DNA of 64,000 bases. Origin: an uncultured Gammaproteobacteria bacterium (GTDB lineage Bacteria > Myxococcota_A > UBA796 > JAJRTE01). The first letter of the stretch is position 1. Each line of letters begins with the position of its first letter. A program made the position numbers and the translations under genes. The stretch is from assembly GCA_964418585.1 (NCBI GenBank), contig CAYQMG010000045.1, positions 721 to 64,720 of the forward strand, written 5' to 3'. The notes under the pieces were generated by a model. That model did not search any database, had not been told where the DNA came from, and saw only the letters and a program-made list of their open reading frames with translations. This document shows, one piece after another, positions 22,684 through 48,618 of this stretch.

Positions 22684-22773
22684 TCCTCCTCGACGGACCT
22701 GGGAGGCGCTGGTATACTTCAAATTCGATTCGTGAATCATGCCTGGTCCGGCGCAAGGTGGCTCGAAGGGGCG

Positions 22774-23607
22774 ATGAGGGAACCCATTCACTGCGGCGTG
22801 TTGCAGATCGAACCGACCGACGTGTGCAACCTTCGGTGCCGGATGTGCGCCCCTCAGCTCGAGGCGTCGAGGACCGTGCACGGGTCGGTTCCCAAGGGGT
22901 ACATGTCCCTGTCCGTGCTGCGCCGGATTGTGGAGGGCATTGCACGCAGTCCCGTGCGGTTCGACCACCTGATCTTTCAGTGGCTGGGGGAACCGACCCT
23001 GCACCCGCGCCTGGTGGACATGGTGAGCCTGTGTCACGAGCGTATCCGGGACCGCTTCGACTACTTCCGGATCGACACGAACGGGGTGGCACTGACCCCC
23101 GAGAAGATAGACGGACTGGTGGAGATCTACGAGCGGGATCGCGGGTTTCCGCTGCTTATCGTCTTCTCTCTGGACGCGGTGACCGAGGCCACTTACCGAC
23201 GGGTGAAAGGAGCGCCTCGAGGTACCTTTTCACGGGTCCTGAAGCACATTGATCACCTGCTGGACCGGCGGGCGGCGTTGAAGGGGGAGCCGGTGAACCT
23301 GAACCTGGAGTTTCAGTTCGTGCTCCAGGGCGGGAATGCGCACGAGACGCGGGCGTTCCTGGAGTACTGGGACCAATACCTGGCCGAGGGGCGACGAGGG
23401 GTCGGGTACAACGAGGTGATGATCAAACGCCTCAGCGTGGCGGCAGGAGGGGAAGGGCAACGGCGGGCGGACGAACTTTACGACGAGACGATGCGGATTT
23501 TTGGGATCCGGCCGTTCGACAAGCCGCACATTCACCTGGCGACCTGGAAGGACAGGACATGGGAACGGGACGTCGCCCCTGCCCGGGGCTCTGGAAAACC
23601 CCTGTAA
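22774..23607 (+). CDS. Radical SAM protein (CxxxCxxC core), N-terminal and core part; apparently truncated by a frameshift
   Basis: Start at MREPIHCGV. Radical SAM cluster motif CNLRCRMC. The ORF ends at 23607 after ...TWKDRTWERDVAPARGSGKPL; the SPASM-like continuation is in another frame. Confidence 0.65.
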   Translation: MREPIHCGVLQIEPTDVCNLRCRMCAPQLEASRTVHGSVPKGYMSLSVLRRIVEGIARSPVRFDHLIFQWLGEPTLHPRLVDMVSLCHERIRDRFDYFRIDTNGVALTPEKIDGLVEIYERDRGFPLLIVFSLDAVTEATYRRVKGAPRGTFSRVLKHIDHLLDRRAALKGEPVNLNLEFQFVLQGGNAHETRAFLEYWDQYLAEGRRGVGYNEVMIKRLSVAAGGEGQRRADELYDETMRIFGIRPFDKPHIHLATWKDRTWERDVAPARGSGKPL

Positions 23608-30773: not shown

Positions 30774-33110
30774 TCACCTCCGACGACCTCCCCGCCACCC
30801 GGACAGCTCCTCCACCGAAATCGTGGGGGCGTTGGGAGAGAACGGGTAACGGCAGTCTCGACAGGGCTCCATTGTGTGCAGACGCCCCTGAATCACCGCC
30901 CGCCGAAGTTCCTCCACGTGCGGCCCATCCCACCACAGGTGCACCAGGTCGTCCCGGGTGACCTCGCCCAGCCTCAGCTTCAGGAAACGGTCCTGGTCGC
31001 ACACGGTCACCTTGCCGTCCCAGGTGATGGTCGGCGTCTTGAACGGAGCGGCGCACCGCGGGACACGGCCTGTGTCCCGGTCCACCAGCACCTCTGTCAC
31101 CCCCAGCGCTTGCGCCGCACGACGCAGGCGCTCGTTGGCCTCATGCTGCGCCAGATAGGTGGCCTCGTCCTTGCGACGGAACAGAATGACATCCGGTACA
31201 GGTCCAGCCGGTTCTTCCCCGGCCCGCGCAATTCTCCCGGAGTGCCATGCAGGAACGCTCATGCCCTCACCCACCCGCACTCGAGGTGCCGGGAGCCCCT
31301 GTTCGGTGAGGCGGTGGGTCCAGACATCGCGGAACCGGACCACTTCATCGACGTTGTCCTCGAGGACCGTGAACACGAAAACCAGTCGAACATGGTCGGC
31401 TCTGACGGCAGCCTTGCGTGCAATCAGGTAGGCCAGGCGCTCCTCGACCACCGGGAGCAGGTCGGCGCCATTGACCTGGAGGTAGGTCTCCCGGGTGGCG
31501 GCGTCGAGCACGACGAACCACGTCTGGGGTAGATGTGCGGCCTCGAGGGTGAGGTCCGCATACTCGGTATTGAGCAACGTGGCGAAGGTGTCGATCCGGA
31601 TCGATCGGAACACCCCATGCGCCTGGGCGCGCGCCAGCAGGTACCGGTAGACCGGGACGAACTCGGGATGAAGCAGAGGGTCTCCGCGCAGGCCGAGACG
31701 CACCTCGTCGACCTGGACCCCGGCATCGGTCAATTCGGGCACGAACTTCCGGATCAGCTCGAATCCCATGAACCCGCGGTTGAAATTCAGGTAACCCCGG
31801 TTCCTCATCTCGTAGTACTCGAACGGGTCCTGATAGCAGCGTTCAAAAGGGACCGGGAGCCTGGAGATCAACTGTTCGAACCGGTCGCGAGACCGTGCGG
31901 GGTCGTGGGGCGGGTGAAGGTCCGAGACATCGGACAGCTCGAGGCACAGGGATGTGCCCTGGAGGGGTGTGGGCCGTTTCCGGTGTGCGGGGAATCGGCG
32001 CCGGACGACCTGGTGCAGGGTTCTTGCGAATTCGAAGGAAATGCGCATGAGCGAGTCCGATGATTCTCTCAGGTAGCAGTCCTGGATACACGGTGTGGTG
32101 CAGGCCTTCACCGCCTTTCGGCGCTCCCTGAGCAGGGGAGAATCCCACAGTTCCCGCAAGGTACGGCTCCGGACGTTGCCGAACGCGCCGGCAAGGAAGT
32201 CCAGGTGACCATCGCACATGATGGCCTGCCCGTCGGCGTTGATGTAGAGTTCCTTCCAGCCGGCGTAGCAAGGGGCCCGACGCGGAGGCAGGATTCCTCG
32301 CACGTACCGTTTCATGATTTCGAGTTCGTGCCGGGTGTTGACGACCGAGAAGCGGTTGGGGTCGTCGGTCTCCTTGCGGTGCAGCACCTGGTCGACCATG
32401 CGGTCGAGTTCATCCCAGCGTGATTCCGGGATCCAGAGGGCCTCGGCGGCAGGAGAAGCGAAGCCCCCGGGGGGCTTGAACAGGGTGAGGAGTTGGACCC
32501 CCTGGAACCCTTGCTGCTCGCACCAGTCGATGAACGAGGGGATGTGCTCGAGATCGAGTGCGTTGACCACACAGTTGACCACGATTTTCCTCGGCGGATT
32601 GCCCGCAGCCGTGTCGGCGGCCCGGATGGCGTGATATCCCTGGAGTGCCCGGTGGAACGAGCCCACCCCGCGCACCCGGTCATGCACCTCCCGGGGTCCG
32701 TCGAGGGACAGGTTGAAGTGAAGCCGGTCATAGGCAATGCGGGCGATACCTCGAGCCCGTTCAGGGGAGATGAGCGTCCCGTTCGTGGTCACGGTGATGT
32801 AGAAATCCTTCAAGCAGGCGTACTCGAGGATCTCCACGATGTCGTCCCGGATGAAGGGCTCGCCGCCGAGCGGGTTGAGGATTCGAACGCCCCACAGCGC
32901 GACCTGGTCGATGAGGTCCTTGATTTCCCGGGTCTCGAGTTCATCCTGGACAGGGTAGCAGGTGGTGCACATGGGGCAGGCAAGGTTGCACCGGAGGGTG
33001 AGGTTGATGGAGACCCAGTCGGGGCGAACCAGGGACCGCCTGGTCGCGCGCGACAGGTTGAACAGGAAGTCGGTCCTGAGTTCGTCCAGGGTCCGGGTCA
33101 TGATCCACAT
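30774..33110 (-). CDS. Tandem radical SAM/SPASM fusion protein (canonical rSAM-SPASM module + second, Cys-triad-less rSAM-like/SPASM module)
   Basis: Module 1: CNLACPMC plus SPASM (CYAGWKELYINADGQAIMCDG, ACTTPCIQDC). Module 2 lacks CxxxCxxC but keeps the TIM-barrel-like core and a SPASM-like end (CAAPFKTPTITWDGKVTVCDQD, PCRDC). It is recognisably homologous to the separate rSAM at 22774 (FRIDTNG vs IRIDTF; PVIRWDGQLTVC vs PTITWDGKVTVC). Confidence 0.75.
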   Translation of the reverse strand: MWIMTRTLDELRTDFLFNLSRATRRSLVRPDWVSINLTLRCNLACPMCTTCYPVQDELETREIKDLIDQVALWGVRILNPLGGEPFIRDDIVEILEYACLKDFYITVTTNGTLISPERARGIARIAYDRLHFNLSLDGPREVHDRVRGVGSFHRALQGYHAIRAADTAAGNPPRKIVVNCVVNALDLEHIPSFIDWCEQQGFQGVQLLTLFKPPGGFASPAAEALWIPESRWDELDRMVDQVLHRKETDDPNRFSVVNTRHELEIMKRYVRGILPPRRAPCYAGWKELYINADGQAIMCDGHLDFLAGAFGNVRSRTLRELWDSPLLRERRKAVKACTTPCIQDCYLRESSDSLMRISFEFARTLHQVVRRRFPAHRKRPTPLQGTSLCLELSDVSDLHPPHDPARSRDRFEQLISRLPVPFERCYQDPFEYYEMRNRGYLNFNRGFMGFELIRKFVPELTDAGVQVDEVRLGLRGDPLLHPEFVPVYRYLLARAQAHGVFRSIRIDTFATLLNTEYADLTLEAAHLPQTWFVVLDAATRETYLQVNGADLLPVVEERLAYLIARKAAVRADHVRLVFVFTVLEDNVDEVVRFRDVWTHRLTEQGLPAPRVRVGEGMSVPAWHSGRIARAGEEPAGPVPDVILFRRKDEATYLAQHEANERLRRAAQALGVTEVLVDRDTGRVPRCAAPFKTPTITWDGKVTVCDQDRFLKLRLGEVTRDDLVHLWWDGPHVEELRRAVIQGRLHTMEPCRDCRYPFSPNAPTISVEELSGWRGGRRR

Positions 33111-33229
33111 CCACGCCGGTCGGAAGCACGATGAGGTATGATAGCATCTCGAGACCTTTTTGCCTGTCGGTTCGGAGCGGGCGGCCGTATAATCCTCCCC
33201 GCTGCACATGGTGGTGGCAGGGGAGGTCC

Positions 33230-34321
33230 ATGAGAGAGAATCGGTTGCAATGGACCGTGGGCAGATGCTGGACGGCTCCGGCCGGGAAGGGTCCGGCGGA
33301 GAAGGCCGGAGACGCACGGGGTCTGCTCGTTGCGCTCCAGGCCCGGGTGTTCCCCGCACTGCTCCTGGCCGTGACGCTCGGGGCGCTCCAGGCCTGCGCG
33401 CACGAGGTCGGGCCCCGACACGGACTCTACATGAGCATGCGGTATACCTACTATGCCGCACTCCCTCGAGATGCCGGCGCACTCCGGGAGGAGGCCCACG
33501 AGATGGTGCTGCCCGAACTTGGAGTGTTCGACCCTCGAACCGTCACATTCACCGATTTCGCTGGAACCGTGCGCGTCCCGGTCGGCCCGAACGCACCTCG
33601 AGACGACCGGAAGCACGAGGCCCTGGCGGATCTGCCGAGGCGGTGCCGAACCGTGTTCGGTGAGCAGGTCCGGGTGCTCGCCTGGATCTTCCTCAGCCGA
33701 ACCGGCCCGGAACGCACGGGGTCGCCGAGGGCCGACACGGCAATACCGGTGTTCGACCCGGCCGACCCGCGGCATCGCGCCGCCCTGGTGACTGCGGTCC
33801 AGCACCTGCACGGACTCGGGTTCGACGGTGTTCAGCTCGATCTCGAGCCCTTCCCGGTGGCGGACGTGGCCCATGTGGTGGACCTGCTGGAGGAAATCCG
33901 GGAGGCGACGGGACCGGAGTTCGCCCGATCGGTGTTCTGCCCCAAGTATGTGCCGACCACAGACGCACGGCTCCATCCGGGCTTCACCTGGTCCTCTCCT
34001 CGAGCCTACCGGCGGCTGGCCCGCCATGGCGAGCAGGTGGTGATTCCCCTCTATGATTTCGGCGCCATCGCCGACACCGAGGAGGCATACCGCACCCTCG
34101 TGCTGGAGGCGGTCCGCGTGCTCCCTCATCGGATCCGTGCAGCACGCAAGTACTGGTTGGCCCTACCCACGTATCGACACACGGCGCAACACCCGCCGAC
34201 CGAGGAGGCTGCGACGGCCTTGGCTCTGATCGCCCACATGCGGCCTCGGCCCGGTGGTGTCCTGTTCTTCGTGCACACGGGCGAACCGCTCGACTACGTC
34301 CCAGGGGTACTCCCACGATGA
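33230..34321 (+). CDS. Hypothetical lipoprotein (possible TIM-barrel glycoside-hydrolase-like; DGVQLDLE motif)
   Basis: Signal peptide and lipobox (LLLAVTLGALQAC). Motif FDGVQLDLEP resembles the GH18-type DG-x-D-x-D-x-E catalytic motif (weak). Start uncertain (33131 or 33230). Confidence 0.4.
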   Translation: MRENRLQWTVGRCWTAPAGKGPAEKAGDARGLLVALQARVFPALLLAVTLGALQACAHEVGPRHGLYMSMRYTYYAALPRDAGALREEAHEMVLPELGVFDPRTVTFTDFAGTVRVPVGPNAPRDDRKHEALADLPRRCRTVFGEQVRVLAWIFLSRTGPERTGSPRADTAIPVFDPADPRHRAALVTAVQHLHGLGFDGVQLDLEPFPVADVAHVVDLLEEIREATGPEFARSVFCPKYVPTTDARLHPGFTWSSPRAYRRLARHGEQVVIPLYDFGAIADTEEAYRTLVLEAVRVLPHRIRAARKYWLALPTYRHTAQHPPTEEAATALALIAHMRPRPGGVLFFVHTGEPLDYVPGVLPR

Positions 34322-37223: not shown

Positions 37224-38051
37224 TCAATGAGCCTGGGAGGCGTTTTTTTCACGATCCAGGGAGTCGGGCCCGTCATGGTCGGCCGGGGGTGGTCCTGGCG
37301 GGACCCCGGCAAAGGTGAGATGGTGATTGATCTTTCTCAGAAATCCCAGCAGGTTGCGCACCTCCTGCTCGTCCAGGGCCAACCGGCCCGCGATTCCCTG
37401 CACCAGAGCTCGAACCTGGGCCTGGTTGCGCGATTTCTGATACTCGACCCGCTGCGCCAACCGCATGACCTCGTCTACCAGCCGCCGCCGGACCGACCAG
37501 GGCGCCACCGTGCGCGGCTCTGAGCCGGTATCGGGATACTGGGCCAACATCAATTCATAGGAAACGATGAGCACTGCCTGAGCCAGATTCAGACTCTTCA
37601 GGCCCGCGGTGGGGATCTGAACCACCAACTCGCACAGACCCACCACCTCATTCGGCAGACCATAGTCCTCCCGGCCAAACAGGATCGCCACCCGACTTTC
37701 CACGGCTCGAGGCAACAGGTAAGGCCCCAGCTCCCGCGGTCCCACCACGGGCACCCGCCAGTGCCGCCTCCGGGCGGTCGTGCCCACGATGGTCCCCACA
37801 TCGGCGAGCGCGTCGTCCAGATGATCGAACACCTCCATCGTCTCGAGAAGGTCCCGGGCGCCTGCGGCCATCCACCGGGCCTTTTCCATGTCGCTGGAGG
37901 CCGGATCCACCACACGCAACCGACAAAGGCCCATGTTCTTCATCGCCCGGCAGGCCGACCCGATATTTCCAGGGTGCTGAGGTTGCACCAGGACCACCAC
38001 GATGTGATCCGGATCGAACGGAAGTGTGGTCTCTGTCAAAAGTCCCTCCAA
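37224..38051 (-). CDS. SpoU/TrmH-family RNA 2'-O-methyltransferase (TrmJ-like)
   Basis: SPOUT motifs (VVLVQPQHPGNIGSACRAMKNMG, AILFGREDYGLPNE, LNLAQAVLIVSYEL). It overlaps the upstream GCS2 gene by 16 nt. Confidence 0.8.
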   Translation of the reverse strand: MEGLLTETTLPFDPDHIVVVLVQPQHPGNIGSACRAMKNMGLCRLRVVDPASSDMEKARWMAAGARDLLETMEVFDHLDDALADVGTIVGTTARRRHWRVPVVGPRELGPYLLPRAVESRVAILFGREDYGLPNEVVGLCELVVQIPTAGLKSLNLAQAVLIVSYELMLAQYPDTGSEPRTVAPWSVRRRLVDEVMRLAQRVEYQKSRNQAQVRALVQGIAGRLALDEQEVRNLLGFLRKINHHLTFAGVPPGPPPADHDGPDSLDREKNASQAH

Positions 38052-39253
38052 ACCGGTCCGCCGTCCTTGAGGGGTTTTCGGAAACGAGTGATCCCCTCGT
38101 CCTCGTGGGAAGCGGCCTCGGTGGCCAAGGCTCGTTCCCCCGCACAGGACGACCGCAATTCCTGCTCGAGACTCATTACCACGGCCTCGAGTGAGTTGGT
38201 CTCACGAAAAACGCGCCGCTGTCGGTCCGCGCTGGAGCCTGTCTCGAGCATGCGCTCGATGGTCTTGAGATAGGGCCAGGAACCCAGAGCCTCGGACACG
38301 GGAGCCAGGGATTCGAGCATCTCTTCCAACACGGTACGGAAACGCTGCTGGCCTCCGGATTCGTCGGTCACCAGACGACAGTCCATGCCCCACCGCACGG
38401 CCCGCCACTTGTTCTCCTGCACAATCCAGTGCCTGGGCACGGGTTGCGGGACACCGCGTTCGTACAGGTCACCCAACCAGACGACCAGGGCCTGGGCAAA
38501 AGCGACCACGGCCAACAACTCGTCCAGGCGCGGCATGGCGTCACAGACCCGAAGCTCGAGGGTCCCGTACTGGGAATGCGGCCGAACATCTCCCCACAGT
38601 TCCTGAATCGACTCGATGGTCCCGATCTGCTGCAAGATTCGGATCATTCGCTGGAACTCGGTCCAGTTCCTCATCTGGTAGGGAACCCCCCCACCAGGCA
38701 AGGACTCGAACACCTTCGACCGCGCACTCACCAAGCCGGTATCCATTCCCTCCCAAAAAGGAGAGGAGGCAGACAGGGCAAGGAGCAACGGAATGTAGGC
38801 GGGAAACACGTTGAAAATGGACATCGCTTTCTCGGCCGTGTCCACCCCGATGTGGATATGCAACCCAAAAGTCAGCATGCGGCGTGCAGTCCACTGCGTG
38901 CGCTGAAGCTGCGTATGATACCGGGCATCCGGGGTCACTTCCTGGTCTGTCCAGTGCCCAAACGGATGCGTGCCCGCGGCGATCAAACGGTATCCCATCT
39001 CATCCGCAGCCCGTATGATGGACGACACCCGCTCCCGCAAATCGGCCTCGACCTCCCCCACCGTGCGGCAAACTCGAGTGTCCAGCTCCAGACAGCACTG
39101 GAGGAGTTCCTTCTTGACATGCGGGTCCTCCCGAAACCGATTCAACAGGGCCGGAGCACCGGAAGCCAGATCCAGGGTTTCCGGCTCCACTGTCTGAAGC
39201 TCGATCTCCACGCCAATCGTGGGCTCGGGAGAGCCCGGAAACGTGATCCCCAT
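38036..39253 (-). CDS. Carboxylate-amine ligase, GCS2 (YbdK) family, paralog A
   Basis: Start at MGITFPGS. Glutamate-cysteine ligase family 2 motifs (IGVEIELQTV, AAGTHPF, GLHIHIGV, SASSPFW, GTLELRVCD). Confidence 0.8.
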   Translation of the reverse strand: MGITFPGSPEPTIGVEIELQTVEPETLDLASGAPALLNRFREDPHVKKELLQCCLELDTRVCRTVGEVEADLRERVSSIIRAADEMGYRLIAAGTHPFGHWTDQEVTPDARYHTQLQRTQWTARRMLTFGLHIHIGVDTAEKAMSIFNVFPAYIPLLLALSASSPFWEGMDTGLVSARSKVFESLPGGGVPYQMRNWTEFQRMIRILQQIGTIESIQELWGDVRPHSQYGTLELRVCDAMPRLDELLAVVAFAQALVVWLGDLYERGVPQPVPRHWIVQENKWRAVRWGMDCRLVTDESGGQQRFRTVLEEMLESLAPVSEALGSWPYLKTIERMLETGSSADRQRRVFRETNSLEAVVMSLEQELRSSCAGERALATEAASHEDEGITRFRKPLKDGGPVWRDF

Positions 39254-39291
39254 ACGCACACCCCGCCGAGGGCACCATATCCACCATCTGG

Positions 39292-40410
39292 TCAGATAAT
39301 CATCCGGTCCTCGAGCAACTCCTCCATGATGCGCCCCGGCACCTGCGCGAGTCCATGGGCGGCACACACCTGCCGCTGACGCACGTACCCGGGCCCCTTC
39401 GCCATGACTTCCTCGAGCACCGCGAACTGGTCCCGCACGCCCAGGCGGTCCACCAATCCCCCCAGTTGGGCCACCACTTGCCGGAAGAACTCGCGAACCG
39501 AGGCCAGACCCCCTTCCTGGTTCGTCACCAGTTCTGCGTCCAGTCCAAACCGGGTCGCCCGCCACTTGTTTTCGCGCACGATCCAGGGATCTTGCTGCGG
39601 AATGACGTTCCCAGCCTCGTAGTTCTGCAGCAGCCAGACCACCACTGCCTGGGCAAGCCCCATCATGGCCGATGCCTCACGCAATGTGTGGGGTGCATCG
39701 CACGCCTGAAGCTCGAGGGTGCCGAGCTTGAGGTTTGGACGGGTATCCCACCAGATGTCCCCGATCTGTTCGATGGTCTCCGCTGCCCGGAGCGTCCGCA
39801 CGTAGGCCTGGAAATCGCCGAAATTGAGCAGCAGGGGAGGCAACCCGGCATTGGGGATGTTCTCGATGACTCGAGTCCTGCACGAAGCGAGGCCGGTGTC
39901 GTGCCCACGCCAGAACGGGCTGGAGGCACTCAAGGCCACGAACAGGGGCACCAGGGTGGTGAGGGCGTTTCCGATGGCGATGGCCTTTTCCCCATCCGGG
40001 ACGCCCACGTGCAGCCGCAACCCGAACACGGCGGCCCGACGGCCGACCCATTGCAATCGCCGCACAAAGGCCTGTGCCCTGGGGGCGTCGTCGATGTGCA
40101 GGTCTCTCCATCCTGCAATGGGGTGTGTTGCAGAAGAGAGGAGGCCGATCCCCATGGGCTCGCACGCCGTTCGAAGCCGGTCGACCCGCTCGTAGAGTTC
40201 CCGGCTGGCGTCTGCCACGGTGTGATGCAGTCCGGTTTCCACCTGCACCAGCGACTGGTAGAGGCTGCGAGAGTAGCCCGGCTCCCCGGCCAACTGCTCG
40301 AGCACGCCCGGAGCAGCAGGGATAGGCAACTCGTTCTCCAGGTCCACAAGCTGAAGTTCCAGGGCGGCCCCGACCACGGGGTCTGCACGACCGACGAACC
40401 TAAGACGCAT
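39292..40410 (-). CDS. Carboxylate-amine ligase, GCS2 (YbdK) family, paralog B
   Basis: Start at MRLRF (Shine-Dalgarno GGAG). Co-linear paralog of the downstream gene (ALELQLV, SATHPI, GLRLHVGV, SASSPFW, GTLELQACD). Confidence 0.8.
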   Translation of the reverse strand: MRLRFVGRADPVVGAALELQLVDLENELPIPAAPGVLEQLAGEPGYSRSLYQSLVQVETGLHHTVADASRELYERVDRLRTACEPMGIGLLSSATHPIAGWRDLHIDDAPRAQAFVRRLQWVGRRAAVFGLRLHVGVPDGEKAIAIGNALTTLVPLFVALSASSPFWRGHDTGLASCRTRVIENIPNAGLPPLLLNFGDFQAYVRTLRAAETIEQIGDIWWDTRPNLKLGTLELQACDAPHTLREASAMMGLAQAVVVWLLQNYEAGNVIPQQDPWIVRENKWRATRFGLDAELVTNQEGGLASVREFFRQVVAQLGGLVDRLGVRDQFAVLEEVMAKGPGYVRQRQVCAAHGLAQVPGRIMEELLEDRMII

Positions 40411-40605
40411 GGGGTACTCCCCGGTCCTCGTTGCCGACTCGACCCCTCCTGGGCGCCGGCGCGGGCCGACGTTGACCGGGTGATGGAACACCGGGGAGCC
40501 GAGAAGCCGCCGGTGGACGGGCTACGAGGCAGGTCATGGCGTTGCTCGAGACGGGTTGGGCGTGGTGTGGGTCCTCCGCACGACAGGCGGTTCGGATGAC
40601 TGCGC

Positions 40606-42795
40606 TCAGGGCGTTCGGCCGGTGAGCTTGCGCCACAGGGAACGGAACCAGTCCGCGATCCGGGCGAAGAACCGGCCCAGGGCCGATTCGGGTTGCACCG
40701 GTGCGACCGCCTTGGTTTCCGGCGTCGGTTCCCTGGCAGGTCCCTCCTTGCCCTTGCCTCCTGCGGGTTCGGTTTCGGCCTTGGGCTGCTCCGCCGCCGG
40801 CTTTTCCACTGGAGGCTCCGGCTTCTTCGCCTCGACCGCTCGAGGCTTTTCCGGCTCGGGTGCCGGCTTCCCGGTTTCCTTGGGAGCTGCCTGTGCGCCT
40901 CCAGATTCGCCTTCCCGAGGGGGTGGCTCTTCTCGAGGAGGCTCTTCCGGGGCCGGAGCGGTCTTGCCGGCCTTGGCAGCCTCCATCTCCGCCTTGGCCT
41001 GGGCCAGAATCTTGGACACACTTTCCTTGGGAAGTTCCCGGGTCGCCTTGTCGAACACCGGGTCATGCCACTTCTTTCTCGTGGGCGTGGTGGGAGTGGG
41101 CGGCGGCAGGGTTCCGGCACTGTCCGTTGCCGTTTCCCAGGGCGCCTTCTTGCTCGCACCGGCCTTGGACCGCGTCGCCGGCGCCGGCGCCTTCACCGCT
41201 TTCCCGGTTCGCTTCTTGACCGTCTTTACCGCGGTCTTTCCCCCCTTGGTCCGCTTGATCGTGGTCTTCTTCTCGGAACCGTCCTCGCTGGTGGATTTCA
41301 CCTTGAGCACGGTCTCCATCTGCTGACCGGTGTCCTTGTCCTTGGCGCTGAGCGTGAGAATCCCCTCGGAATCAATGTGGAACAGCACCTCGACCTTGAC
41401 CGTCCCCTTCTTGGCCTTCCGGATTCCGGAGAAGATGAATGTGCCCAGGATCTCGTTCTCGGCCGCCACCTCGTGGTCGCCCTGATAGATCTTGAGCATG
41501 ATCGACTTCTGGTTGTCCTTGGAATTGGTCAGAATCAAGGACTTGTAACTCGGGATCGGACTGAACTTCGGGAAAAGACGGAGCAGGGTGCCGTCCACCT
41601 TGGCGATCCCGATGGCCATGGGCAACACGTCCAGCAACTCCACCTTGTGGTAGCTCTGGTCGGTCAACGAGTGGGCCATGATGGCCGCACCCACGGCCAC
41701 CGCTTCATCAGGATGAACCCCCTTGCACGGCTGTCGCTTGAACGCCTCGGTCACCTTGCGCTGCACGAGCGGCATGCGGGATTGCCCACCCACGAGCAGG
41801 ACCTCATCCAGGTCCTTGAGTTCGAGCTTGGCCTCCTTGAGCACGCGCATGCAGGTATTGAGCGTGCGGTCCACCAGGTCGTGGGTCAGTTCCTCGAGCT
41901 TCTCTCGTGTGAGGACCATGTCCACGTTCAGCGTGCCCTTGGGGCCTCGAGCAATGAAGGGGATGTTGATCCGCGTCTCCTCGAGACTCGACAGGTCGAT
42001 CTTGGCGCGCTCGGCAGATTCCTTGATCCGCTGGACCGCCACAATGTTGTTGGAAAGGTCGATCCCGTGGTCCTTTTCGAAACTGGAGATGATCCACTCC
42101 ATCACCCGGTTGTCGAAGTCGATCCCTCCCAACATGGTATCGCCGCCGGTGGCGATCACCTCGAAGATCTTGTCCTTGACCTCGATGATGGAAATGTCGA
42201 ACGTGCCCCCGCCGAGGTCGTAGACGGCGAGCTTCTGGTTGAGATTCTTGCCAAGGCCGTAGGCGAGGGCAGCGGCCGTGGGCTCATTGAGGATCCGGAT
42301 GACATTGAGCTTGGCCATCTTCCCCGCGTTCCGGACCGCCTGCCGCTGGCGCTCATTGAAGTAGGCGGGGACGGTGATCACGGCGCTGGTGATCTCGTCG
42401 TGGAGGTACTCCTCGGAGACTTCCCGGATCTTGTCGAGAATGTGAGCGGAGATCTGCTCGAGGGAGAAGATCTGGTCCTTGATCTTGACCAAGACCTCGT
42501 TCTGGTCGCCCTCCATGATCTCGTAGGTAAAGAGCTGACGGACCTTTTCGATGGTCTTGGACCCGTAGTTCCTGCCCAACAGGCGCTTCGAGCCGTAGAT
42601 GGTGCCGGCCGGATTGAGCTGAGAGATCTTCTTGGCGTCGTGTCCGACGAGCTTGTTACCCGCGTCATCGACGGCGAACATGGACGGAATGGTATAGTTT
42701 CCGCCCTTGTACATGATGATCTTGGGTTGGTTGTTCTCCACCACGGCTGCACAGGAGTTGGTGGTGCCGAGGTCAATTCCAATTGCCTTTCCCAT
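40606..42795 (-). CDS. Atypical Hsp70-family ATPase with roughly 250-aa low-complexity K/P/A/E-rich C-terminal tail
   Basis: Hsp70 signatures (IGIDLGTTNS, DLGGGTFD, LVGGQSRMP). Start at MGKAIGIDLG with an AAGGAG Shine-Dalgarno. The substrate-binding-domain region is recognisable. The tail (KAPAPATRSKAGASKKAP...PEPEKPRAVEAKKPEPPVEKPAAEQPKAE) is disordered-type. Codon usage looks AT-richer than neighbouring genes. Confidence 0.85.
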   Translation of the reverse strand: MGKAIGIDLGTTNSCAAVVENNQPKIIMYKGGNYTIPSMFAVDDAGNKLVGHDAKKISQLNPAGTIYGSKRLLGRNYGSKTIEKVRQLFTYEIMEGDQNEVLVKIKDQIFSLEQISAHILDKIREVSEEYLHDEITSAVITVPAYFNERQRQAVRNAGKMAKLNVIRILNEPTAAALAYGLGKNLNQKLAVYDLGGGTFDISIIEVKDKIFEVIATGGDTMLGGIDFDNRVMEWIISSFEKDHGIDLSNNIVAVQRIKESAERAKIDLSSLEETRINIPFIARGPKGTLNVDMVLTREKLEELTHDLVDRTLNTCMRVLKEAKLELKDLDEVLLVGGQSRMPLVQRKVTEAFKRQPCKGVHPDEAVAVGAAIMAHSLTDQSYHKVELLDVLPMAIGIAKVDGTLLRLFPKFSPIPSYKSLILTNSKDNQKSIMLKIYQGDHEVAAENEILGTFIFSGIRKAKKGTVKVEVLFHIDSEGILTLSAKDKDTGQQMETVLKVKSTSEDGSEKKTTIKRTKGGKTAVKTVKKRTGKAVKAPAPATRSKAGASKKAPWETATDSAGTLPPPTPTTPTRKKWHDPVFDKATRELPKESVSKILAQAKAEMEAAKAGKTAPAPEEPPREEPPPREGESGGAQAAPKETGKPAPEPEKPRAVEAKKPEPPVEKPAAEQPKAETEPAGGKGKEGPAREPTPETKAVAPVQPESALGRFFARIADWFRSLWRKLTGRTP

Positions 42796-43166
42796 AGACT
42801 CCAGAGACTCCTTCGGTGGCACCGTTCACTGTTGGCACCGGATGTATCCGCCAAGGGGTCCCGCCGAGCGGTGGAGTGAGACCGCGGCCTCCGAACCGCG
42901 TCCCCATCGAGGCCGGTGCGCACACACGGCACCCTCGCCCCAGCCCGGACCCGGACACGTCCAATCCGTTGCAGACAAAGAACTTCCCCGCATCTACCGG
43001 CCAGATGTCACTTGTACCAGATCATGTCTCAAAGGTCAACTCGCAAAGTCCGGCCTGCCCGAAAAAAACTGACCCCAGGCCTGCCGGTTGTCGCGCGCCG
43101 CGTCACCGGAGAAGTGCCTGGGCAGCCTGACGGTGGAGACCACCACCTGGAAGACGGAGGCCGGAC

Positions 43167-44555
43167 TCAGTTTCTCAGGGACTGAATAGGAGCCGGGATA
43201 CGCCCGCCGGCCCGGACGAACCCCCGCGCCGAGAAACTGTTCACCGCCATGATCGGAGCCTCGCCCAACAACCCTCCGAAAACGGCGCGATCCCCCACTC
43301 CCTTGCCTGGAACCGGGATGATCCGCACGGCAGTCGTCTTGTTGTTCATCACCCCGATGGCGGCCTCGTCGGCGATGATCGCGGCGATGGTCTCGGGAGG
43401 CGTATCCCCCGGGATGGCCACCATGTCCAGGCCCACCGAGCAGATGCTGGTCAAGGCCTCGAGCTTTTCGAGGGTCAGGGCGCCTGCGTCCACTGCTTCG
43501 ATCATTCCCCGGTCCTCACTCACCGGGATGAACGCGCCAGACAACCCACCCACGTACGAGGATGCCATCACCCCGCCCTTTTTGACCGCATCGGTCAGGA
43601 GGAAAAGCGCTGCGGTGGTACCCGGCGCCCCTGTCCGTTCCAGTCCCATCGCCTCGAGAATGTTGGCAACGGAATCGCCCACCGCCGGAGTCGGCGCGAG
43701 GGAGAGGTCCACGATCCCGAATTTCACGCCGTTGCCCAGTCGCCGCACGACCTCCCGGCCGGCCCACTCCCCGGCCCGGGTCACCTTGAATGCTGTTCGC
43801 TTCACCGTATCGGCCAGGGCACCCAGATCCACCGGTCGACCCGATTCCTTGAGTTCCTGAATCGCCTTCAGGACCACGCCCGGACCGGAGACTCCCACAT
43901 TGATCACACAGTCCGGTTCCCCTACCCCAACCATGCCGCCGGCGATGAACGGATTGTCCTCCGCAGCGTTGGCAAACACCACCAACTTGCAACAGCCGAT
44001 GGCATCCCGGTCGGCCGTGCGGCGCGCCGTTTCCAGGATCACTTCCGACATCCTGGACACCGCGTCCATGTTGATCCCCGCCCGACTGGTGGCCACGTTC
44101 ACGGAACTGCACACCCTCGAGGTTTCGGCCAGGACGGTCGGAATTGCGTCCAGCAGCGCCCGGTCCCCCGGCGTGATCCCCTTGTGTACAAGGGCGGAAA
44201 ACCCGGCCAGGTAGTCCACTCCCAGGTCGCGCGCTACCCGGTCGAGTGTGCGGGCCAGGGGAAGCATCGCGTCCGGCCCGGCCGCTCCAGCGATGAGCGC
44301 GATGGGGCTGACCGATACCCGCTTGTTCACGATGGGGATCCCGAAATCGTCCTCGACCGATCGGGCAACCCGGACCAGGTCCTTGGCGCACCGATGGATC
44401 TTGTCCCGCACGCGGCGACACAGTTCCGGAACCGAAGGGGAGACGCAGTCGTGGAGCGAGATCCCCATGGTGACGGTTCGAACGTCCAGATGGTTGGAAT
44501 ACACCATCTGGATGATCTCCCGGATTTCCTCGATCGACCAGTACATCCCACACAC
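43167..44555 (-). CDS. UPF0210 / DUF711 family protein
   Basis: Full-length match by recall to the UPF0210 family (N-terminal M..EI.E...[16 protein letters not shown]; about 450 aa). The family is classically paired with an upstream ACT-domain UPF0237 protein, as here. Confidence 0.75.
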
Positions 44556-44597
44556 CCATCAGGGGCCTCGCGGACAGCCCCTGCCTTGCCGTCGGGG

Positions 44598-45095
44598 TCA
44601 AATACGTTGCATACCCCGAAAAATCTCCTCGTGAACAGCCACCACCTGCACCCCCAATCGCTGGCCCTGGGCCAGGAGGCGCTGCTTCAACTCGTTGAAG
44701 TTGCGCCCCCTCCGTGAAAGGCCGTTCAAGTCCAGGATCATGATCATCGTGAAGAATCCGCCCACGATGGTCTGCGAAATGTCCAGGATGTCGGCGTCGA
44801 ATTCGGCTACCAGCGAGGCGAACGCGGCCACGATCCCGGTCCGGTTCATCCCGGTCACGGTCACCACACCCCGGTTTTGAAGTTCGGGTTGCTCGCCGGC
44901 CTTGCAGCGGACACACTCGGCGTACCCGGGTGCGGCAGCAGGAGCGCTCGAGAGGTCCGTGGACGCCCCCCCCCGCCGGTCCACGGCGTCGACCACCTCG
45001 CGGACGATGGCCTGGACCACCTCGGGGTCGACCTCGCCCACCTCCTGGCGCACCAGGCGGACGATTTCTTCTTCCATGCCTTGCTCAATCGCCAT
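44598..45095 (-). CDS. ACT-domain protein (UPF0237 family)
   Basis: C-terminal ACT fold region (VVTVTGMNRTGIVAAFASLVAEFDADILDISQTIVGGFFTMIMILDL). It lies immediately upstream of the UPF0210 gene. Its start overlaps the preceding BMC-P gene; an alternative start at MEEEIV (45077) is possible. Confidence 0.7.
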   Translation of the reverse strand: MAIEQGMEEEIVRLVRQEVGEVDPEVVQAIVREVVDAVDRRGGASTDLSSAPAAAPGYAECVRCKAGEQPELQNRGVVTVTGMNRTGIVAAFASLVAEFDADILDISQTIVGGFFTMIMILDLNGLSRRGRNFNELKQRLLAQGQRLGVQVVAVHEEIFRGMQRI

Positions 45096-45426
45096 GGGAA
45101 CTCCTCGCGCTTTCCTCCGGGTCCGGGTTCACGGAAAACCGGTCCACGATGGCCACGACCGCGGCATCCACCGGGATTGACGGCCTGGCGTCCTCGGGCA
45201 AGTCAGGCTCGAGAGACACCCGGGCGGCATGACCGTATGCGACGACGACATCTTCGCCGGGCCCGGCGCCGTAACAATCTGCGGCGACCACGGCATCGCT
45301 GGTGGGTTCGCCCCGTCCTGCGAGCGCATCCAGGGTGTAGGGCCGCACCAGCAACAGCTTGACCCCCTCCAGTTCCTGCCATTTCACCGTCGACCAGACG
45401 ACGCCGACGACCCGGGCCAAAAACAT
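45085..45426 (-). CDS. BMC vertex protein (EutN/CcmL/PduN family, BMC-P), paralog 4
   Basis: MFLARVVGVVWSTVKWQELEGVKLLLVRP...AGPGEDVVVAYGHAAR...PVDAAVVAIVD. Textbook EutN_CcmL pattern (CcmL: M.IA.V.GTVVST.K...L.G.KLLL...G.GEWVL...GS.AR...PVDAAVVAIID). Confidence 0.75.
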   Translation of the reverse strand: MFLARVVGVVWSTVKWQELEGVKLLLVRPYTLDALAGRGEPTSDAVVAADCYGAGPGEDVVVAYGHAARVSLEPDLPEDARPSIPVDAAVVAIVDRFSVNPDPEESARSSHGD

Positions 45427-45433
45427 GACCACC

Positions 45434-45739
45434 TCACCATGTTTTTTCGAAGACCTCTGCCAGCACCACGGACACGGCGGCGTCGGCGAGCACGGTGCCA
45501 CGCCCGCGGGGAGAAACCGCGTTCCGGGCCCCACTCCCCCAACTCACCAGGACTTCCTGCCCAGGCGCTGCGTCCAGGGTGTCGATGGCCACCACCACCT
45601 CGCCGGTGGGAACGCCTCTTCCGGACCCGCCCTCTTGCTCGGCGGCACGGATCACCTCGACCATCACCAGCTTGCGACCGGCCATGGCGGGATGTTTCCT
45701 GGTCGCCCACACTTCCCCGATGATTCGCCCGCGTATCAT
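45434..45739 (-). CDS. BMC vertex protein (EutN/CcmL/PduN family, BMC-P), paralog 3
   Basis: MIRGRIIGEVWATRKHPAMAGRKLVMVEVI...AAPGQEVLVSWGSGAR...LADAAVSVV. ATGA start/stop overlap with paralog 2. Confidence 0.7.
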   Translation of the reverse strand: MIRGRIIGEVWATRKHPAMAGRKLVMVEVIRAAEQEGGSGRGVPTGEVVVAIDTLDAAPGQEVLVSWGSGARNAVSPRGRGTVLADAAVSVVLAEVFEKTW

Positions 45740-46104
45740 GCCCCCTCTCCCGTTTTCCACCCGGGTGGCGTCACCCCCTTTGGCAACGGTCCGGGTTCGA
45801 AACAAAACGGGGCATCCGGGTCGGACCAGGCGGCGGGGTCCACCTCGGTGCGATCCACCACCGCACAGACGGCGGCCTCCACGGGATAGTTGCGCCCGCC
45901 CAGACTCCATCGGGCCGGGGTGCCGAACGTGACCACCACGTCGTCGCCCACACCGGCGTCGAGACGGTCCACAGCCACGACGTGCGCGGCGTCGTGCGGG
46001 GGGAGGTACCACCCGTAAGGACGGACGACGAGAAGTTTCTGTCCGTCCAGGCGCGTATCCTTTCGCGTGGCCCAGACGGTTCCCACGACCCTCCCGAGAA
46101 ACAT
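45736..46104 (-). CDS. BMC vertex protein (EutN/CcmL/PduN family, BMC-P), paralog 2, with about 30-aa C-terminal extension
   Basis: MFLGRVVGTVWATRKDTRLDGQKLLVVRP...AGVGDDVVVTFGTPAR...PVEAAVCAVVD. It carries an extra Pro/Gly-rich C-terminus. Confidence 0.75.
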   Translation of the reverse strand: MFLGRVVGTVWATRKDTRLDGQKLLVVRPYGWYLPPHDAAHVVAVDRLDAGVGDDVVVTFGTPARWSLGGRNYPVEAAVCAVVDRTEVDPAAWSDPDAPFCFEPGPLPKGVTPPGWKTGEGA

Positions 46105-46154
46105 GCACCCTCCCTGTGGGCACGGACCAGTCCGTCCCCGATTGAGGACGAGCA

Positions 46155-46466
46155 TCACCCGCGTTCGGGCACCCGCCCCGCCGGTTCGTCGGCCATCCAG
46201 ACGTCGTCCACGATGGCGATCACCACGTCCTTGGCCGGGACCCCCTCGCCAAACCCGATGTCTCGCACCCGACTGCCGTGCGCCACCAGCACCCGGTCTC
46301 CGGGGCCGGCCTGCAACCGGTCGAGCGCCACCCAGGTGGTTTCTCCAGGGGCAAGACCTCCCCCGGCACCGAACTCCAGGGCACGGACCTCGAGAAGCTT
46401 TACCGACTCCAGGCCCTCCGCCCGCACGTCCCCCCACAAAGCCCGCTCCACTCGTGCCAGTCTCAT
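46155..46466 (-). CDS. BMC vertex protein (EutN/CcmL/PduN family, BMC-P), paralog 1
   Basis: MRLARVERALWGDVRAEGLESVKLLEVRA...AGPGDRVLVAHGSRVR...AKDVVIAIVDDV. ATGA overlap with the ADH stop, indicating translational coupling. Confidence 0.7.
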   Translation of the reverse strand: MRLARVERALWGDVRAEGLESVKLLEVRALEFGAGGGLAPGETTWVALDRLQAGPGDRVLVAHGSRVRDIGFGEGVPAKDVVIAIVDDVWMADEPAGRVPERG

Positions 46467-47647
46467 GAGAACCGCACCATGATTTTGCCGTCCGTCCGTG
46501 TGGTGGATCGCTCGAGGGCGTCCAGCACCTGGGCGAACGGGTAGCGGGCCGTGATCATCTTCGCCGCCGGAATCCGCCCGGTGGCGAGCATCCGAATGAT
46601 ATTCGGAAAGATACCGTAACCCGCGTGGCCTCGAGCACCCGCGATGGAGTTTGCATTGCTGACGAGGACATCGAGCTGGGCTTCCACCGCGGTGGCCGCG
46701 CGCCCCAGGTAGACCATTTTCCCGTTTGGTGCGTAACTCTGCTCAATCTCCGGCACCGTGTGGGGCGCTGCACCGGCCGCCTCGACGAGCATGTCGGCCC
46801 CATGGCCGTCGGTGATGTCCATGACGATTTCGTGCGGAGAGGTGCCTTCCCGTGCCAGAGCGATGGGATTGTAGGCCGCGTCCGCGCCCATCTCCACGGC
46901 CAGGTTGCACCGCTGGTCAACCACGTCGAACACCACGATCCGGGCTGCCCCGGCAGCTCGAGCCATCAGCACTGCGCCGAGGCCGATGGGACCTGCTCCG
47001 AACACTGCGACATGAGCACCGGGAAGGAATCCGCCGGCAGACACGAACATGCCATTGTAGGAGCAACCAATCGGCTCGATCAAGGCGCCGATTTCGTACA
47101 TCTCCTGGTCGGAATTGCACACCTGACGCAGGTCGTCGAGCTTCCAGCAGTATTTCTCCTTGACCGCGATATACTCGGCAAAGGCCCCCGGGGAACTGAA
47201 CCCCACCATCTCCAGGTGCCGACACTGGTTCGGGTGGCCGGTTCGACAGGGGCGACACACGCCGCACCACAACATGCCCTCGGGAGCCACCGGGTCGCCC
47301 ACCTTGAGTGTGGTGACGGCCCGTCCCACCTCGACCACCTCTCCGGAGTACTCGTGTCCCATGATGACCGGGAGCTTGACAGGTCCAGAGAAGATCACAT
47401 AGCCGTCGGGGTCGGTTTCAAAGCAGTGGGTATCGCTGCCGCACACGCCGCAGGCCTTGACCTTGAGCAGCACCTCGTCGTCGGCAATGCGGGGAACAGG
47501 CTGGTGCTCGAGCGTGATCTTCGGGTTGCGCCAGACCGCGCTGGCGCAGGTGGCCTTTCCGCTCTCCTGCTCTTGCCGGCTCACCACGTAGCCGTCCTTT
47601 GGATCCCAGTCTCCCCTCAGCACGAGTGCTTGCATGTTGTCACCCAT
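46463..47647 (-). CDS. Zn-dependent alcohol dehydrogenase (MDR superfamily; sorbitol/threonine-dehydrogenase-like)
   Basis: Catalytic and structural Zn motifs (CGVCGSDTH, GHEYSGEVVEVG, C-x2-C-x2-C-x7-C: CGVCRPCRTGHPNQC). Rossmann motif GAGPIGLG. Confidence 0.85.
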   Translation of the reverse strand: MGDNMQALVLRGDWDPKDGYVVSRQEQESGKATCASAVWRNPKITLEHQPVPRIADDEVLLKVKACGVCGSDTHCFETDPDGYVIFSGPVKLPVIMGHEYSGEVVEVGRAVTTLKVGDPVAPEGMLWCGVCRPCRTGHPNQCRHLEMVGFSSPGAFAEYIAVKEKYCWKLDDLRQVCNSDQEMYEIGALIEPIGCSYNGMFVSAGGFLPGAHVAVFGAGPIGLGAVLMARAAGAARIVVFDVVDQRCNLAVEMGADAAYNPIALAREGTSPHEIVMDITDGHGADMLVEAAGAAPHTVPEIEQSYAPNGKMVYLGRAATAVEAQLDVLVSNANSIAGARGHAGYGIFPNIIRMLATGRIPAAKMITARYPFAQVLDALERSTTRTDGKIMVRFS

Positions 47648-47784
47648 GGAGCGCCTCCAGTCTCGTCGTCGAGTGATTCCAGACGTGTCCGCGCAGCGGA
47701 CCCCGGGGCCGGGCGAAGTCCGACCTCGAGCCAGCAAAGCCTACCCTGGAATGGAGGCGAGATCAACGGCAATCACCGCCGTCC

Positions 47785-48618
47785 TCATGCCTGCGGGTGC
47801 GCCCGGGAGTTTTCGTGTCCTTCGGGAGAGAAGAAGAGGTAGGCCCCGTATCCCACGACCTCGGTCCTGGGGCCTGCCGTATCACCGGAATTCCGCAGGT
47901 CCACGGTGTGCACCCGCAGGCCCTTGCGCCGGGCCACCACCAACAGGCCGCGAAGGGGGTAGAACCCGCACGCCTGATGGTGGTCGATCCGGTCCGGGTC
48001 CAGGTCCTCGATGGCCCGGGACACGGCGGCGTCGAGTTTGCGGGCAACCTCGTAGGGTTCGTAATGACTCAGGTCCGAACTCACGACCACGAGGGTTTCG
48101 GGTCCTCCCCACAGGGATTCCAGCACCTCGGCGACCTGCTCCGGAGTGGCGCTGCCGACCACGAGGGGCACGAGGGAAAAGGCATCGAGCGTTTCCTGGA
48201 GGAATGGGAGGTGCACCTCGAGGCTGTGCTCGAGGGCATGGGCGGCGTTGGAGACCTGCACCTGGGGCAACCTGGCCAGTGCAGCACACGCGTCGGCGTC
48301 GAGGGGCACGTCTCCGAGGGGAGTACGAAAAGCGTCGACCGAGGGCAATGCCAGACCGACGACCGGGAAACGATGTGCAGGACCCAGGAGCACGACCCGG
48401 GTAATGGTCGAGCGTGCGGGCAGGAGATGGACATAGGCGGAGCCGGCGATGGGCCCGGAGTAGATGTACCCTGCATGAGGCGCCACGAGCGCCTTGGGCA
48501 CGGCGTCCCCGTCCATCTTCCTCGCCGTTTCCAGGTACCCTGCCACGGCCCGCTTCACCTCTCGAGCGTCGGCCGGATAGAAGCTACCAGCGACTGCGGG
48601 TTGTCTCACGGCAGACAT
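47785..48618 (-). CDS. Memo-like protein (AmmeMemoRadiSam system protein B family)
   Basis: N-terminal AGSFYP and VAPHAGYIYSGP, then HSLEVHLPFL, are the hallmark MEMO1/AmmeMemoRadiSam-B motifs. No AMMECR1 or activating rSAM partner is adjacent. Confidence 0.8.
   Translation of the reverse strand: MSAVRQPAVAGSFYPADAREVKRAVAGYLETARKMDGDAVPKALVAPHAGYIYSGPIAGSAYVHLLPARSTITRVVLLGPAHRFPVVGLALPSVDAFRTPLGDVPLDADACAALARLPQVQVSNAAHALEHSLEVHLPFLQETLDAFSLVPLVVGSATPEQVAEVLESLWGGPETLVVVSSDLSHYEPYEVARKLDAAVSRAIEDLDPDRIDHHQACGFYPLRGLLVVARRKGLRVHTVDLRNSGDTAGPRTEVVGYGAYLFFSPEGHENSRAHPQA

Follow-up and report, generated by a model that had tools for sequence, protein, structure and literature searches.

The 64,000-nucleotide stretch analysed here, which is part of contig CAYQMG010000045.1 of assembly GCA_964418585.1 and is referred to as the window throughout, carries an operon in which four paralogues of the bacterial microcompartment (BMC) vertex protein BMC-P, named P1 to P4, precede the genes for an ACT-domain protein and a DUF711 protein assigned to the GlyXS and GlyXL families, respectively. 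These genes constitute the conserved core of a Myxococcota-specific six-gene module, P1-P2-P3-P4-glyXS-glyXL, in which gene order as well as the overlaps of stop and start codons have been kept in dozens of species. The module is undescribed in the BMC catalogues and the literature that we searched, and its component families are all known. Tentatively, we lean slightly towards a hexamer-free BMC-P assembly that tethers or encloses GlyXS-GlyXL, rather than towards a complete microcompartment whose genes are dispersed in the genome.

Four BMC-P paralogues and glyXS-glyXL form a conserved module

Positions 43167–48618 of the window hold eight co-directional genes on the minus strand, just as a first-pass annotation made from the letters alone had listed them: a Memo-like gene, a Zn-dependent dehydrogenase gene, P1, P2, P3, P4, the ACT gene and the DUF711 gene. 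That annotation had regarded the entire series as translationally coupled. Direct reading of the DNA confirmed ATGA overlaps of the dehydrogenase stop with the P1 start and of the P2 stop with the P3 start, and overlaps or small gaps are found further along: P1 and P2 are separated by 50 nt containing GGGAGGG, P3 and P4 by 7 nt, P4 overlaps glyXS by 11 nt, and a gap of ~50 nt precedes the DUF711 gene. However, the Memo-like and dehydrogenase genes lie 137 nt apart and this pair is thus not coupled. Scanning the operon boundaries for promoters and terminators gave no signal beyond chance.

All four small proteins scored above the gathering cutoff of PF03319 (EutN/CcmL, BMC-P; 25 bits) in a Pfam search, bearing out their initial assignment to this family: P1 (46155–46466; 54.1 bits, E 2.4e-14, match starting at residue 1), P2 (45736–46104; 78.9 bits, E 4.2e-22), P3 (45434–45739; 64.7 bits, E 1.2e-17, profile positions 1–69 of 83) and P4 (45085–45426; 78.8 bits, E 4.5e-22), all on the minus strand. 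Hidden Markov models (HMMs) of the orthologue families detected exactly four EutN-type open reading frames (ORFs) in the 64-kb window. Pairwise identities among P1–P4 range from 35 to 58%, the upper value being that of P2 and P4, and comparison with the shell-forming BMC-P proteins of Haliangium ochraceum-type (HO-type) microcompartments of Myxococcota gave 36–53%, with 47–53% for P4. The paralogues are therefore mutually as distant as each is from HO-type BMC-P, indicating that the duplication is old, which is also what had been proposed from the motifs at first sight. P1, P2 and P4 have kept the canonical BMC-P motifs, and P2 ends in a non-conserved C-terminal tail. P3, the most divergent of the four, has lost the canonical GAGxGE and C-terminal IVD motifs. 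Each of the orthologue families of P1 (61 sequences), P2 (61) and P3 (62) has its own conserved signature, and P4 is the best-conserved paralogue, with 35 invariant columns across 22 aligned orthologues; hence, the P genes are not pseudogenes. An AlphaFold2 model of moderate quality (predicted local distance difference test score, pLDDT, 68) was obtained for P4, the one paralogue modelled, and adopts the BMC-P β-barrel. Its top Foldseek matches are all BMC-P proteins (GrpN, CcmL, EutN and HO BMC-P; probability 1.00, TM ~0.5–0.68), and the best PDB match of P4 is the Haliangium shell vertex BMC-P 5V74 (E 2.3e-10). Taken together, P1–P4 are four genuine, anciently diverged BMC-P paralogues.

The gene overlapping the end of P4, glyXS (44598–45095, minus strand), encodes the ACT-domain small subunit (UPF0237; PF13740 E 2.3e-14). 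It contains a single PRK00194-type ACT domain, which scores 85.5 bits as compared to a cutoff of 74 and spans residues 74–165 only, and the gene lies upstream of and adjoins glyXL on the same strand, an order that recurs in 57 related loci. The large subunit GlyXL (DUF711/UPF0210; 43167–44546, minus strand; PF05167 E 4.7e-181) reaches 703 bits with the NCBIfam model PRK05313 (cutoff 440) and aligns over its full length with PDB entry 2HA9 (E 2.7e-155, residues 5–459). It is a ten-stranded β/α barrel and a distant relative of ribonucleotide reductase and pyruvate formate-lyase (RNR/PFL). By these profile scores, the ACT protein belongs to the GlyXS family and the DUF711 protein to the GlyXL family, both as full-length members. 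According to the GapMind preprint (bioRxiv 10.1101/2024.10.14.618325, latest version July 2026), 2HA9 is the GlyXL protein of S. pneumoniae, and the pair, which received its names there, is a GlyA-independent system for glycine synthesis. Both proteins are required for glycine-free growth of Bifidobacterium breve and Methanococcus maripaludis, which are devoid of GlyA, and the genes of B. breve complement an E. coli glyA mutant under aerobic conditions; evidence for the function thus consists of RB-TnSeq (transposon sequencing) and E. coli glyA complementation. GlyXS and GlyXL co-occur in 885 genera, and their proposed product is glyoxylate, an aldehyde, from which a transaminase then yields glycine (bioRxiv 10.1101/2024.10.14.618325). 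A function and, as product, an aldehyde have thus been proposed for the ACT (UPF0237)/UPF0210 pair.

To assess conservation, we collected relatives of P4, of which the protein database holds 979. A scan of one genome per species returned 530 stretches encoding a P4 relative, from which the best 80 were taken; the locus analysis comprised 82 unique related loci with flanks of up to 10 kb each, and counts are limited to loci with enough flanking sequence. The best 80 stretches all derive from uncultured metagenome-assembled genomes (MAGs) labelled Myxococcota, Polyangia, Myxococcales, Anaeromyxobacteraceae or unclassified Delta-/Proteobacteria, apart from one each labelled Oligoflexales, Pseudomonadota and “uncultured bacterium”. 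The closest relative, Myxococcota bacterium Dive96_bin1.27, has a P4 that is 79% identical and agrees with the window throughout the neighbourhood that extends from the TonB receptor to SpoU, which places the window in Myxococcota. The ACT and DUF711 genes directly follow P4 in 57 of 69 informative loci, so that the association between BMC-P and ACT/UPF0210, first suspected from the window, proves to be strongly conserved. P1-P2-P3 precede P4 in the same order in 55/74 loci with enough upstream sequence. Overlaps of 4 nt are seen for P1/P2 in 53 and for P2/P3 in 58 of 60 loci, and P3 and P4 usually abut. P4 is present in all related loci and is the sole P gene in 18; every one of these P4-only loci with downstream sequence has kept ACT-DUF711.

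It could be argued that the BMC-P array and glyXS-glyXL share no mechanism, that is, they were merely co-inherited within a single lineage, or a microcompartment was lost and the P genes are its decaying remains. Indeed, all loci belong to one phylum, meaning that shared ancestry inflates the counts, and 12 loci keep P1–P4 without glyXS-glyXL within 10 kb. However, the adjacency of P4, glyXS and glyXL survives down to 46–60% P4 identity despite rearrangement of all other neighbours, the genes overlap or abut, and the P4-only lineage lost P1–P3 and nevertheless kept P4 beside glyXS. The signatures of the P families and the invariant columns of P4 speak against decay, and the GlyXS proteins encoded next to P genes carry, wherever the N-terminus was readable, an extension, described below, that is absent from the few canonical GlyXS sequences retrieved. 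We therefore consider mere co-inheritance or decay improbable.

GlyXS carries an N-terminal extension resembling encapsulation peptides

Canonical GlyXS, judged from the few sequences retrieved, is 90–97 aa long, begins at the ACT core and has no extension. In contrast, GlyXS of the window starts with a lineage-specific N-terminal extension of 73 residues, and every P-adjacent GlyXS with a readable N-terminus has 35–165 extra N-terminal residues. The invariant element of the extension is an amphipathic helix, represented by EEEIVRLVRQEV and PEVVQAIVREVVDAV in the window and by LRRLVAEVTREV in many relatives, which is followed by a linker rich in P, A, G and S and then by a CxxC motif. In the AlphaFold2 model of the window protein, helices are predicted at residues 2–19 and 24–43, followed by a disordered linker at 43–58 (pLDDT <50), whereas the ACT core is modelled with pLDDT >90. 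The spacing [LIVM]xx[LIVM][LIVMA]xx[LIVM][LIVMTA]xx[LIVMA] occurs in 25/45 orthologue extensions, and the density of such heptad-type hydrophobic patterns is 0.67 per 100 aa as compared to a background of 0.10 in all ORFs of the loci, i.e. ~7-fold higher. The encapsulation peptides of PduD, EutC and EutE exhibit the same hydrophobic spacing and similar hydrophobic moments.

Encapsulation peptides are defined as amphipathic helices of 15–20 aa on a flexible linker (Sutter et al. 2021, PMC8217296). According to the model, GlyXS would possess both elements, namely a terminal helix and a flexible, poorly conserved linker. The region at 44973–45077 (minus strand), which comprises the two predicted amphipathic helices ahead of the linker and the CxxC motif, thus resembles BMC encapsulation peptides and may have a shell-binding role. 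When the 73-aa extension was used as query in an exhaustive HMMER search, no other proteins carrying it came up, the matches being GlyXS relatives and low-complexity repeats.

Two further features of the extension deserve mention. The CxxC motif (window 44895–44906, GlyXS residues 64–67) sits between linker and ACT core and has no counterpart in canonical GlyXS. It reads CVRC in the window and CASC, CQAC or CAAC in orthologues, and could be a metal or redox site. In addition, many GlyXS orthologues (loci L008, L004, L015, L022, L043 and others) carry at the extreme N-terminus an extra domain of ~45 aa, the “TPLAR” domain (consensus MKRxIxExDxEALxxDGxxxVxRDMIVTPLARExAxRKGI), which is absent from the window protein. 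This domain has a weak match to PF15953 (PDU_like, putative propanediol utilisation; E 0.043) and no significant match in the PDB.

Rather than building a higher-order structure, the P proteins might act as small regulatory or chaperone subunits that gate or stabilise GlyXS-GlyXL, in which case the helices would serve self-association of GlyXS. This would agree with the operon layout, which fits stoichiometric production, with the fact that ACT proteins are usually regulators (bioRxiv 10.1101/2024.10.14.618325) and with the derivation of the OB-like BMC-P barrel from cellular proteins, as put forward in the introductory part of a literature account. However, four paralogues in fixed order appear excessive for such a simple role, the canonical pentamer-type motifs have been retained, and GlyXS-GlyXL of B. 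breve functions in E. coli without any such partner (bioRxiv 10.1101/2024.10.14.618325). A role as accessory subunits is thus unlikely in our view.

Hexamer genes are absent from the window and from the flanks of related loci

A microcompartment shell is expected to involve the hexamer genes BMC-H and BMC-T in addition to BMC-P, and the first-pass annotation had noticed none of these in the 64 kb. We searched the six-frame translation of the window with a BMC-H HMM derived from five reference sequences and found no BMC-H/T gene (best E 0.17), in agreement with that impression. As a positive control, the same HMM recovered BMC-H with E ~1e-48 and BMC-T with 1e-11 to 1e-13 in three HO-type loci. 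Likewise, no BMC-H/T gene was detected within the 10-kb flanks of the 82 related loci (1.23 Mb). Thus, BMC-H is encoded alongside BMC-P neither in the window nor within 10 kb in its relatives. In the three HO-type main loci, BMC-P directly adjoins BMC-H, unlike in the module loci. One of these control loci (L092 1–5319, GCA_022360315.1) lies ~4 kb from a gas-vesicle cluster encoding GvpA, GvpK, GvpG, GvpL/F and a CDC48-type AAA ATPase. The BMC-H-bearing HO-type assemblies identified among the matches listed, DATFWX01, CAYMOR01 and JAKSDA01, are Polyangia- or Proteobacteria-labelled MAGs, and none of them is among the 80 assemblies carrying the module.

Two readings, which we consider almost equally probable and each somewhat less than even, have to be weighed against each other at this point. 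On the one hand, the operon may be a vertex-plus-cargo satellite of a complete, dispersed microcompartment. That is, BMC-H/T genes would reside elsewhere in the genome, as in FRAG or HO type I systems, P1–P4 would cap the shell, and GlyXS-GlyXL would be the signature enzyme of a new glyoxylate-forming metabolosome, tagged with an encapsulation peptide. A satellite locus, as defined by Axen 2014 and Sutter et al. 2021, presupposes that the same genome has a main locus in which BMC-H and BMC-P are both encoded. Three hallmarks of metabolosomes come together here, namely canonical sequence and fold of BMC-P, a helix-linker element akin to encapsulation peptides and a proposed aldehyde product. 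Scattered shell genes and enzyme-bearing BMC-P satellites are documented (Sutter et al. 2021, PMC8217296), HO-type BMC-H loci are present in Polyangia MAGs of the same soil MAG series as 13 module loci, and P4 is as similar to shell BMC-P proteins as shell BMC-Ps of different BMC types are to each other. However, the lack of BMC-H/T within 10 kb in all 82 loci and the absence of the three HO-type assemblies from the module carriers argue to the contrary. Moreover, all HO loci have exactly a BMC-P triplet according to the 2021 catalogue (Sutter et al. 2021, PMC8217296), in whose supplements, as far as searched, DUF711 does not appear as a neighbour, and the annotated flanks of the window reveal no aldehyde dehydrogenase, phosphotransacylase, other core metabolosome enzyme or cofactor-recycling partner. 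Finally, coupling of four P genes with their cargo gene suggests similar production of all proteins, which would be odd for a component that occupies only 12 vertices. A dispersed microcompartment is a realistic possibility, albeit one in which we place less than even confidence.

On the other hand, the vertex protein may have been re-used as a scaffold for a single enzyme and may no longer form the corner of a full shell. According to such a mechanism, P1–P4 would form pentamers, P4 being essential and P1–P3 being co-produced in roughly equal amounts, and the pentamers would bind the encapsulation-peptide-like helices of GlyXS. Multivalent pentamers together with ACT proteins, which are usually oligomeric, would gather GlyXS-GlyXL into a compact, microcompartment-derived assembly that confines or channels the reactive aldehyde. 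The absence of BMC-H/T genes from all 82 neighbourhoods, contrasting with HO-type loci, in which BMC-P adjoins BMC-H, favours a hexamer-free assembly, as do the translationally coupled, cargo-linked layout, the statement that HO loci contain triplets and, suggestively, the absence of DUF711 from the catalogue supplements searched. In its specific form, this hexamer-free assembly of pentamers would serve as a scaffold, nucleate a condensate or form a tiny cage; it would capture GlyXS-GlyXL through the helix and confine glyoxylate. It would represent the first BMC-H-independent function of BMC-P and a minimal kind of enzyme compartment; we regard these particulars as possible but rather uncertain.

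Several observations weigh against a hexamer-free assembly. The search for BMC-H/T genes extended to flanks of 10 kb, and HO-type shells do occur in Polyangia MAGs. The 12 loci mentioned above that lack nearby glyXS-glyXL indicate that the P array is not strictly dependent on this adjacency. The canonical motifs of P1, P2 and P4 and the identity of P4 with shell BMC-P are as would be expected if these proteins still fitted into a hexamer lattice. Encapsulation peptides reportedly attach to hexamers or cause cargo to aggregate, and are not known to bind pentamers. Pentamer formation and binding of P4 to GlyXS are deduced from sequence and from a P4 model of moderate quality, and glyoxylate as product is itself the proposal of a preprint.

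Genes flanking the module and variation among related loci

The operon of the window starts with a gene for a Memo-like protein of the AmmeMemoRadiSam system protein B family (47785–48618, minus strand; PF01875 E 3.5e-52, TIGR04336 E 2.3e-79), which is followed by a gene for a Zn-dependent dehydrogenase (46463–47647, minus strand; PF08240 and PF00107). The latter belongs to the IolM (scyllo-inosose 3-dehydrogenase) family, scoring 528 bits with NF041097 as compared to an equivalog cutoff of 450; no further inositol-pathway genes are present among its annotated neighbours (17–56 kb of the window). Both genes lie outside the conserved core. Only the window and its closest relative have the Memo-like gene beside the array, and only the window (L001) and L003/L006 the dehydrogenase gene; other genes occupy the position upstream of the array elsewhere. 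We therefore rejected Memo and IolM as parts of the system. From the window, the first-pass annotation had envisaged a neighbourhood Memo-ADH-(BMC-P)n-ACT-UPF0210 and, besides a satellite locus or pentamer-only assemblies, a new cargo association involving all of these proteins. The BMC-P/ACT/UPF0210 part is conserved and a cargo association is supported for ACT/UPF0210, but the link to the Memo-like protein and the dehydrogenase (Zn-ADH) does not extend beyond the window and the 79%-identical relative. Neither an AMMECR1 nor a radical SAM gene adjoins the Memo-like gene; AMMECR1 was not seen in the annotated part of the window, and radical SAM genes are located 15–25 kb away (22540–23604, plus strand, and, with SPASM domains, 30777–33482, minus strand). 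One of these two could be the AmmeMemoRadiSam partner of the Memo-like protein.

Pfam annotation of 20 flanking genes (about 16–57 kb) identified Hsp70, two GCS2 ligases, a SpoU methylase, a TonB-dependent receptor, kinases and radical SAM enzymes, and no aldehyde dehydrogenase, phosphotransacylase or aldolase of the metabolosome type. Directly downstream of glyXL, genes for Hsp70 (40606–42822), which has a long C-terminal tail rich in K, P, E and A, and for two tandem GCS2 (glutamate-cysteine ligase family 2) paralogues (39292–40491 and 38036–39565) follow on the minus strand. The closest relative (L003) has the same Hsp70-GCS2-GCS2 arrangement, which more distant loci lack.

The related loci differ in what surrounds the module. 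In 43 of them (e.g. L067 8629–9090 and L002 8697–9053), a basic helical protein of ~120–154 aa is encoded immediately upstream of P1 and in the same direction; the window lacks this protein, which has no Pfam or NCBIfam match and ends in a K/A/P-rich, histone-H1-like tail. This is reminiscent of a preprint on Asgard microcompartments (PMC12747264), in which vertex proteins are described as bearing fused disordered tails rich in K and R. We also considered an additional shell component or a fifth EutN protein among the unannotated flanking proteins of other loci. These have no Pfam match and no resemblance to BMC-H or EutN, none occurs in the window, and they turned out to be a lipoprotein, a basic helical protein and membrane proteins, so that this idea was dismissed.

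In P4-only loci (L040 9696–9971, L022 9545–9781, L007 1515–1751), a stand-alone protein of 79–92 aa is encoded immediately upstream of P4, which by our reading of its sequence looks like an AsnC/RAM-type ligand-binding domain; genes for a MetH-like methionine synthase (~1135 aa) and a TPR/DnaJ-like protein of 524 aa come before it. Such surroundings suggest a link to amino-acid or one-carbon sensing. In other related loci, methylenetetrahydrofolate reductase (MTHFR) is encoded a few kb downstream, and the combined context of MetH and MTHFR fits one-carbon and amino-acid metabolism. The MAG CAIOFV01 (MJ-time_bin-5834) has two separate P4-type loci, L014 and L022, on different contigs, implying that the module can be duplicated or that the bin is mixed. 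In L002 (13031–14932 of the locus, from a 4.33-Mb ENA contig), glyXL is called as a 633-aa DUF711-Cupin fusion. The C-terminus of GlyXL is found there in another frame (13290–14414) and the Cupin is a separate gene in L004; hence, the fusion is probably an assembly frameshift error.

Novelty and implications

The first-pass annotation had taken the association of BMC-P with ACT/UPF0210 to be undescribed, which agrees with the catalogues and papers searched. The 2021 catalogue covers BMC-P singles, the CsoS4A/B pair and triplets (Sutter et al. 2021, PMC8217296), and the terms pfam05167, DUF711, pfam13740 and pfam01875 as well as the names of module MAGs that were tried are absent from its supplements as far as these were searched, which is suggestive only. 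Full-text searches found no literature linking EutN/BMC-P to DUF711/UPF0210 or reporting BMC-P without BMC-H, and the GapMind preprint makes no mention of a BMC-P partner of GlyXS-GlyXL (bioRxiv 10.1101/2024.10.14.618325).

Four BMC-P paralogues locked to one defined enzyme provide a concrete test system for an additional role of BMC-P. Should these genomes lack hexamers, the module would embody a new and minimal way of building compartments from protein, which synthetic biology might exploit. Should they contain hexamers, it would represent a microcompartment of a new functional type, with a biosynthetic, glyoxylate-forming role, in Myxococcota that are widespread in soil and freshwater. A lineage that pairs GlyXL with aldehyde-sequestering machinery and a putative targeting helix lends independent, circumstantial support to a reactive aldehyde as product of its chemistry.

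Comparison with known systems

Among known systems, the HO-type BMC of Haliangium ochraceum and other Myxococcota (PMC8217296) is closest. The phylum is the same, several BMC-P paralogues are present, of which some lie in an enzyme-bearing satellite locus, and its shell BMC-P is the best solved match of P4 (5V74). However, HO loci contain three BMC-P genes rather than four. In the HO main locus, BMC-P lies directly beside BMC-H, BMC-T and aldehyde dehydrogenase, none of which is near the module, and the satellite enzyme is a class II aldolase instead of GlyXS-GlyXL. Multiplicity of BMC-P is also a hallmark of the FRAG BMC, whose shell genes are scattered, whose function is unknown and which is reported in Ignavibacteriae, Gemmatimonadetes, Planctomycetes and candidate phyla (Sutter et al. 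2021, PMC8217296). FRAG is defined by BMC-H and a BMC-P triplet somewhere in the genome, whereas here, as read from the loci alone, four P genes stand in fixed tandem in an operon with one specific enzyme. The diverged, always tandem BMC-P paralogues CsoS4A and CsoS4B of the α-carboxysome provide another parallel; these are two rather than four, always belong to a full shell-gene locus and have Rubisco and carbonic anhydrase as cargo.

With regard to the enzyme, both proteins of the window conform to the GlyXS-GlyXL system (bioRxiv 10.1101/2024.10.14.618325; 2HA9) in being full-length, above the NCBIfam equivalog cutoffs, adjacent and encoded on one and the same strand in the usual order. They differ in the N-terminal extension of GlyXS, of 73–120 aa, and in one or four BMC-P genes ahead, whereas GlyXS outside the lineage has ~90–97 aa and no extension. 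The extension in turn shares with the encapsulation peptides of Pdu and Eut enzymes (PduD, PduP, EutC, EutE) a terminal amphipathic helix of 15–20 residues and a flexible linker to the enzyme. Here, however, two helices are predicted instead of one and a conserved CxxC follows the linker; sequence homology was neither found nor expected.

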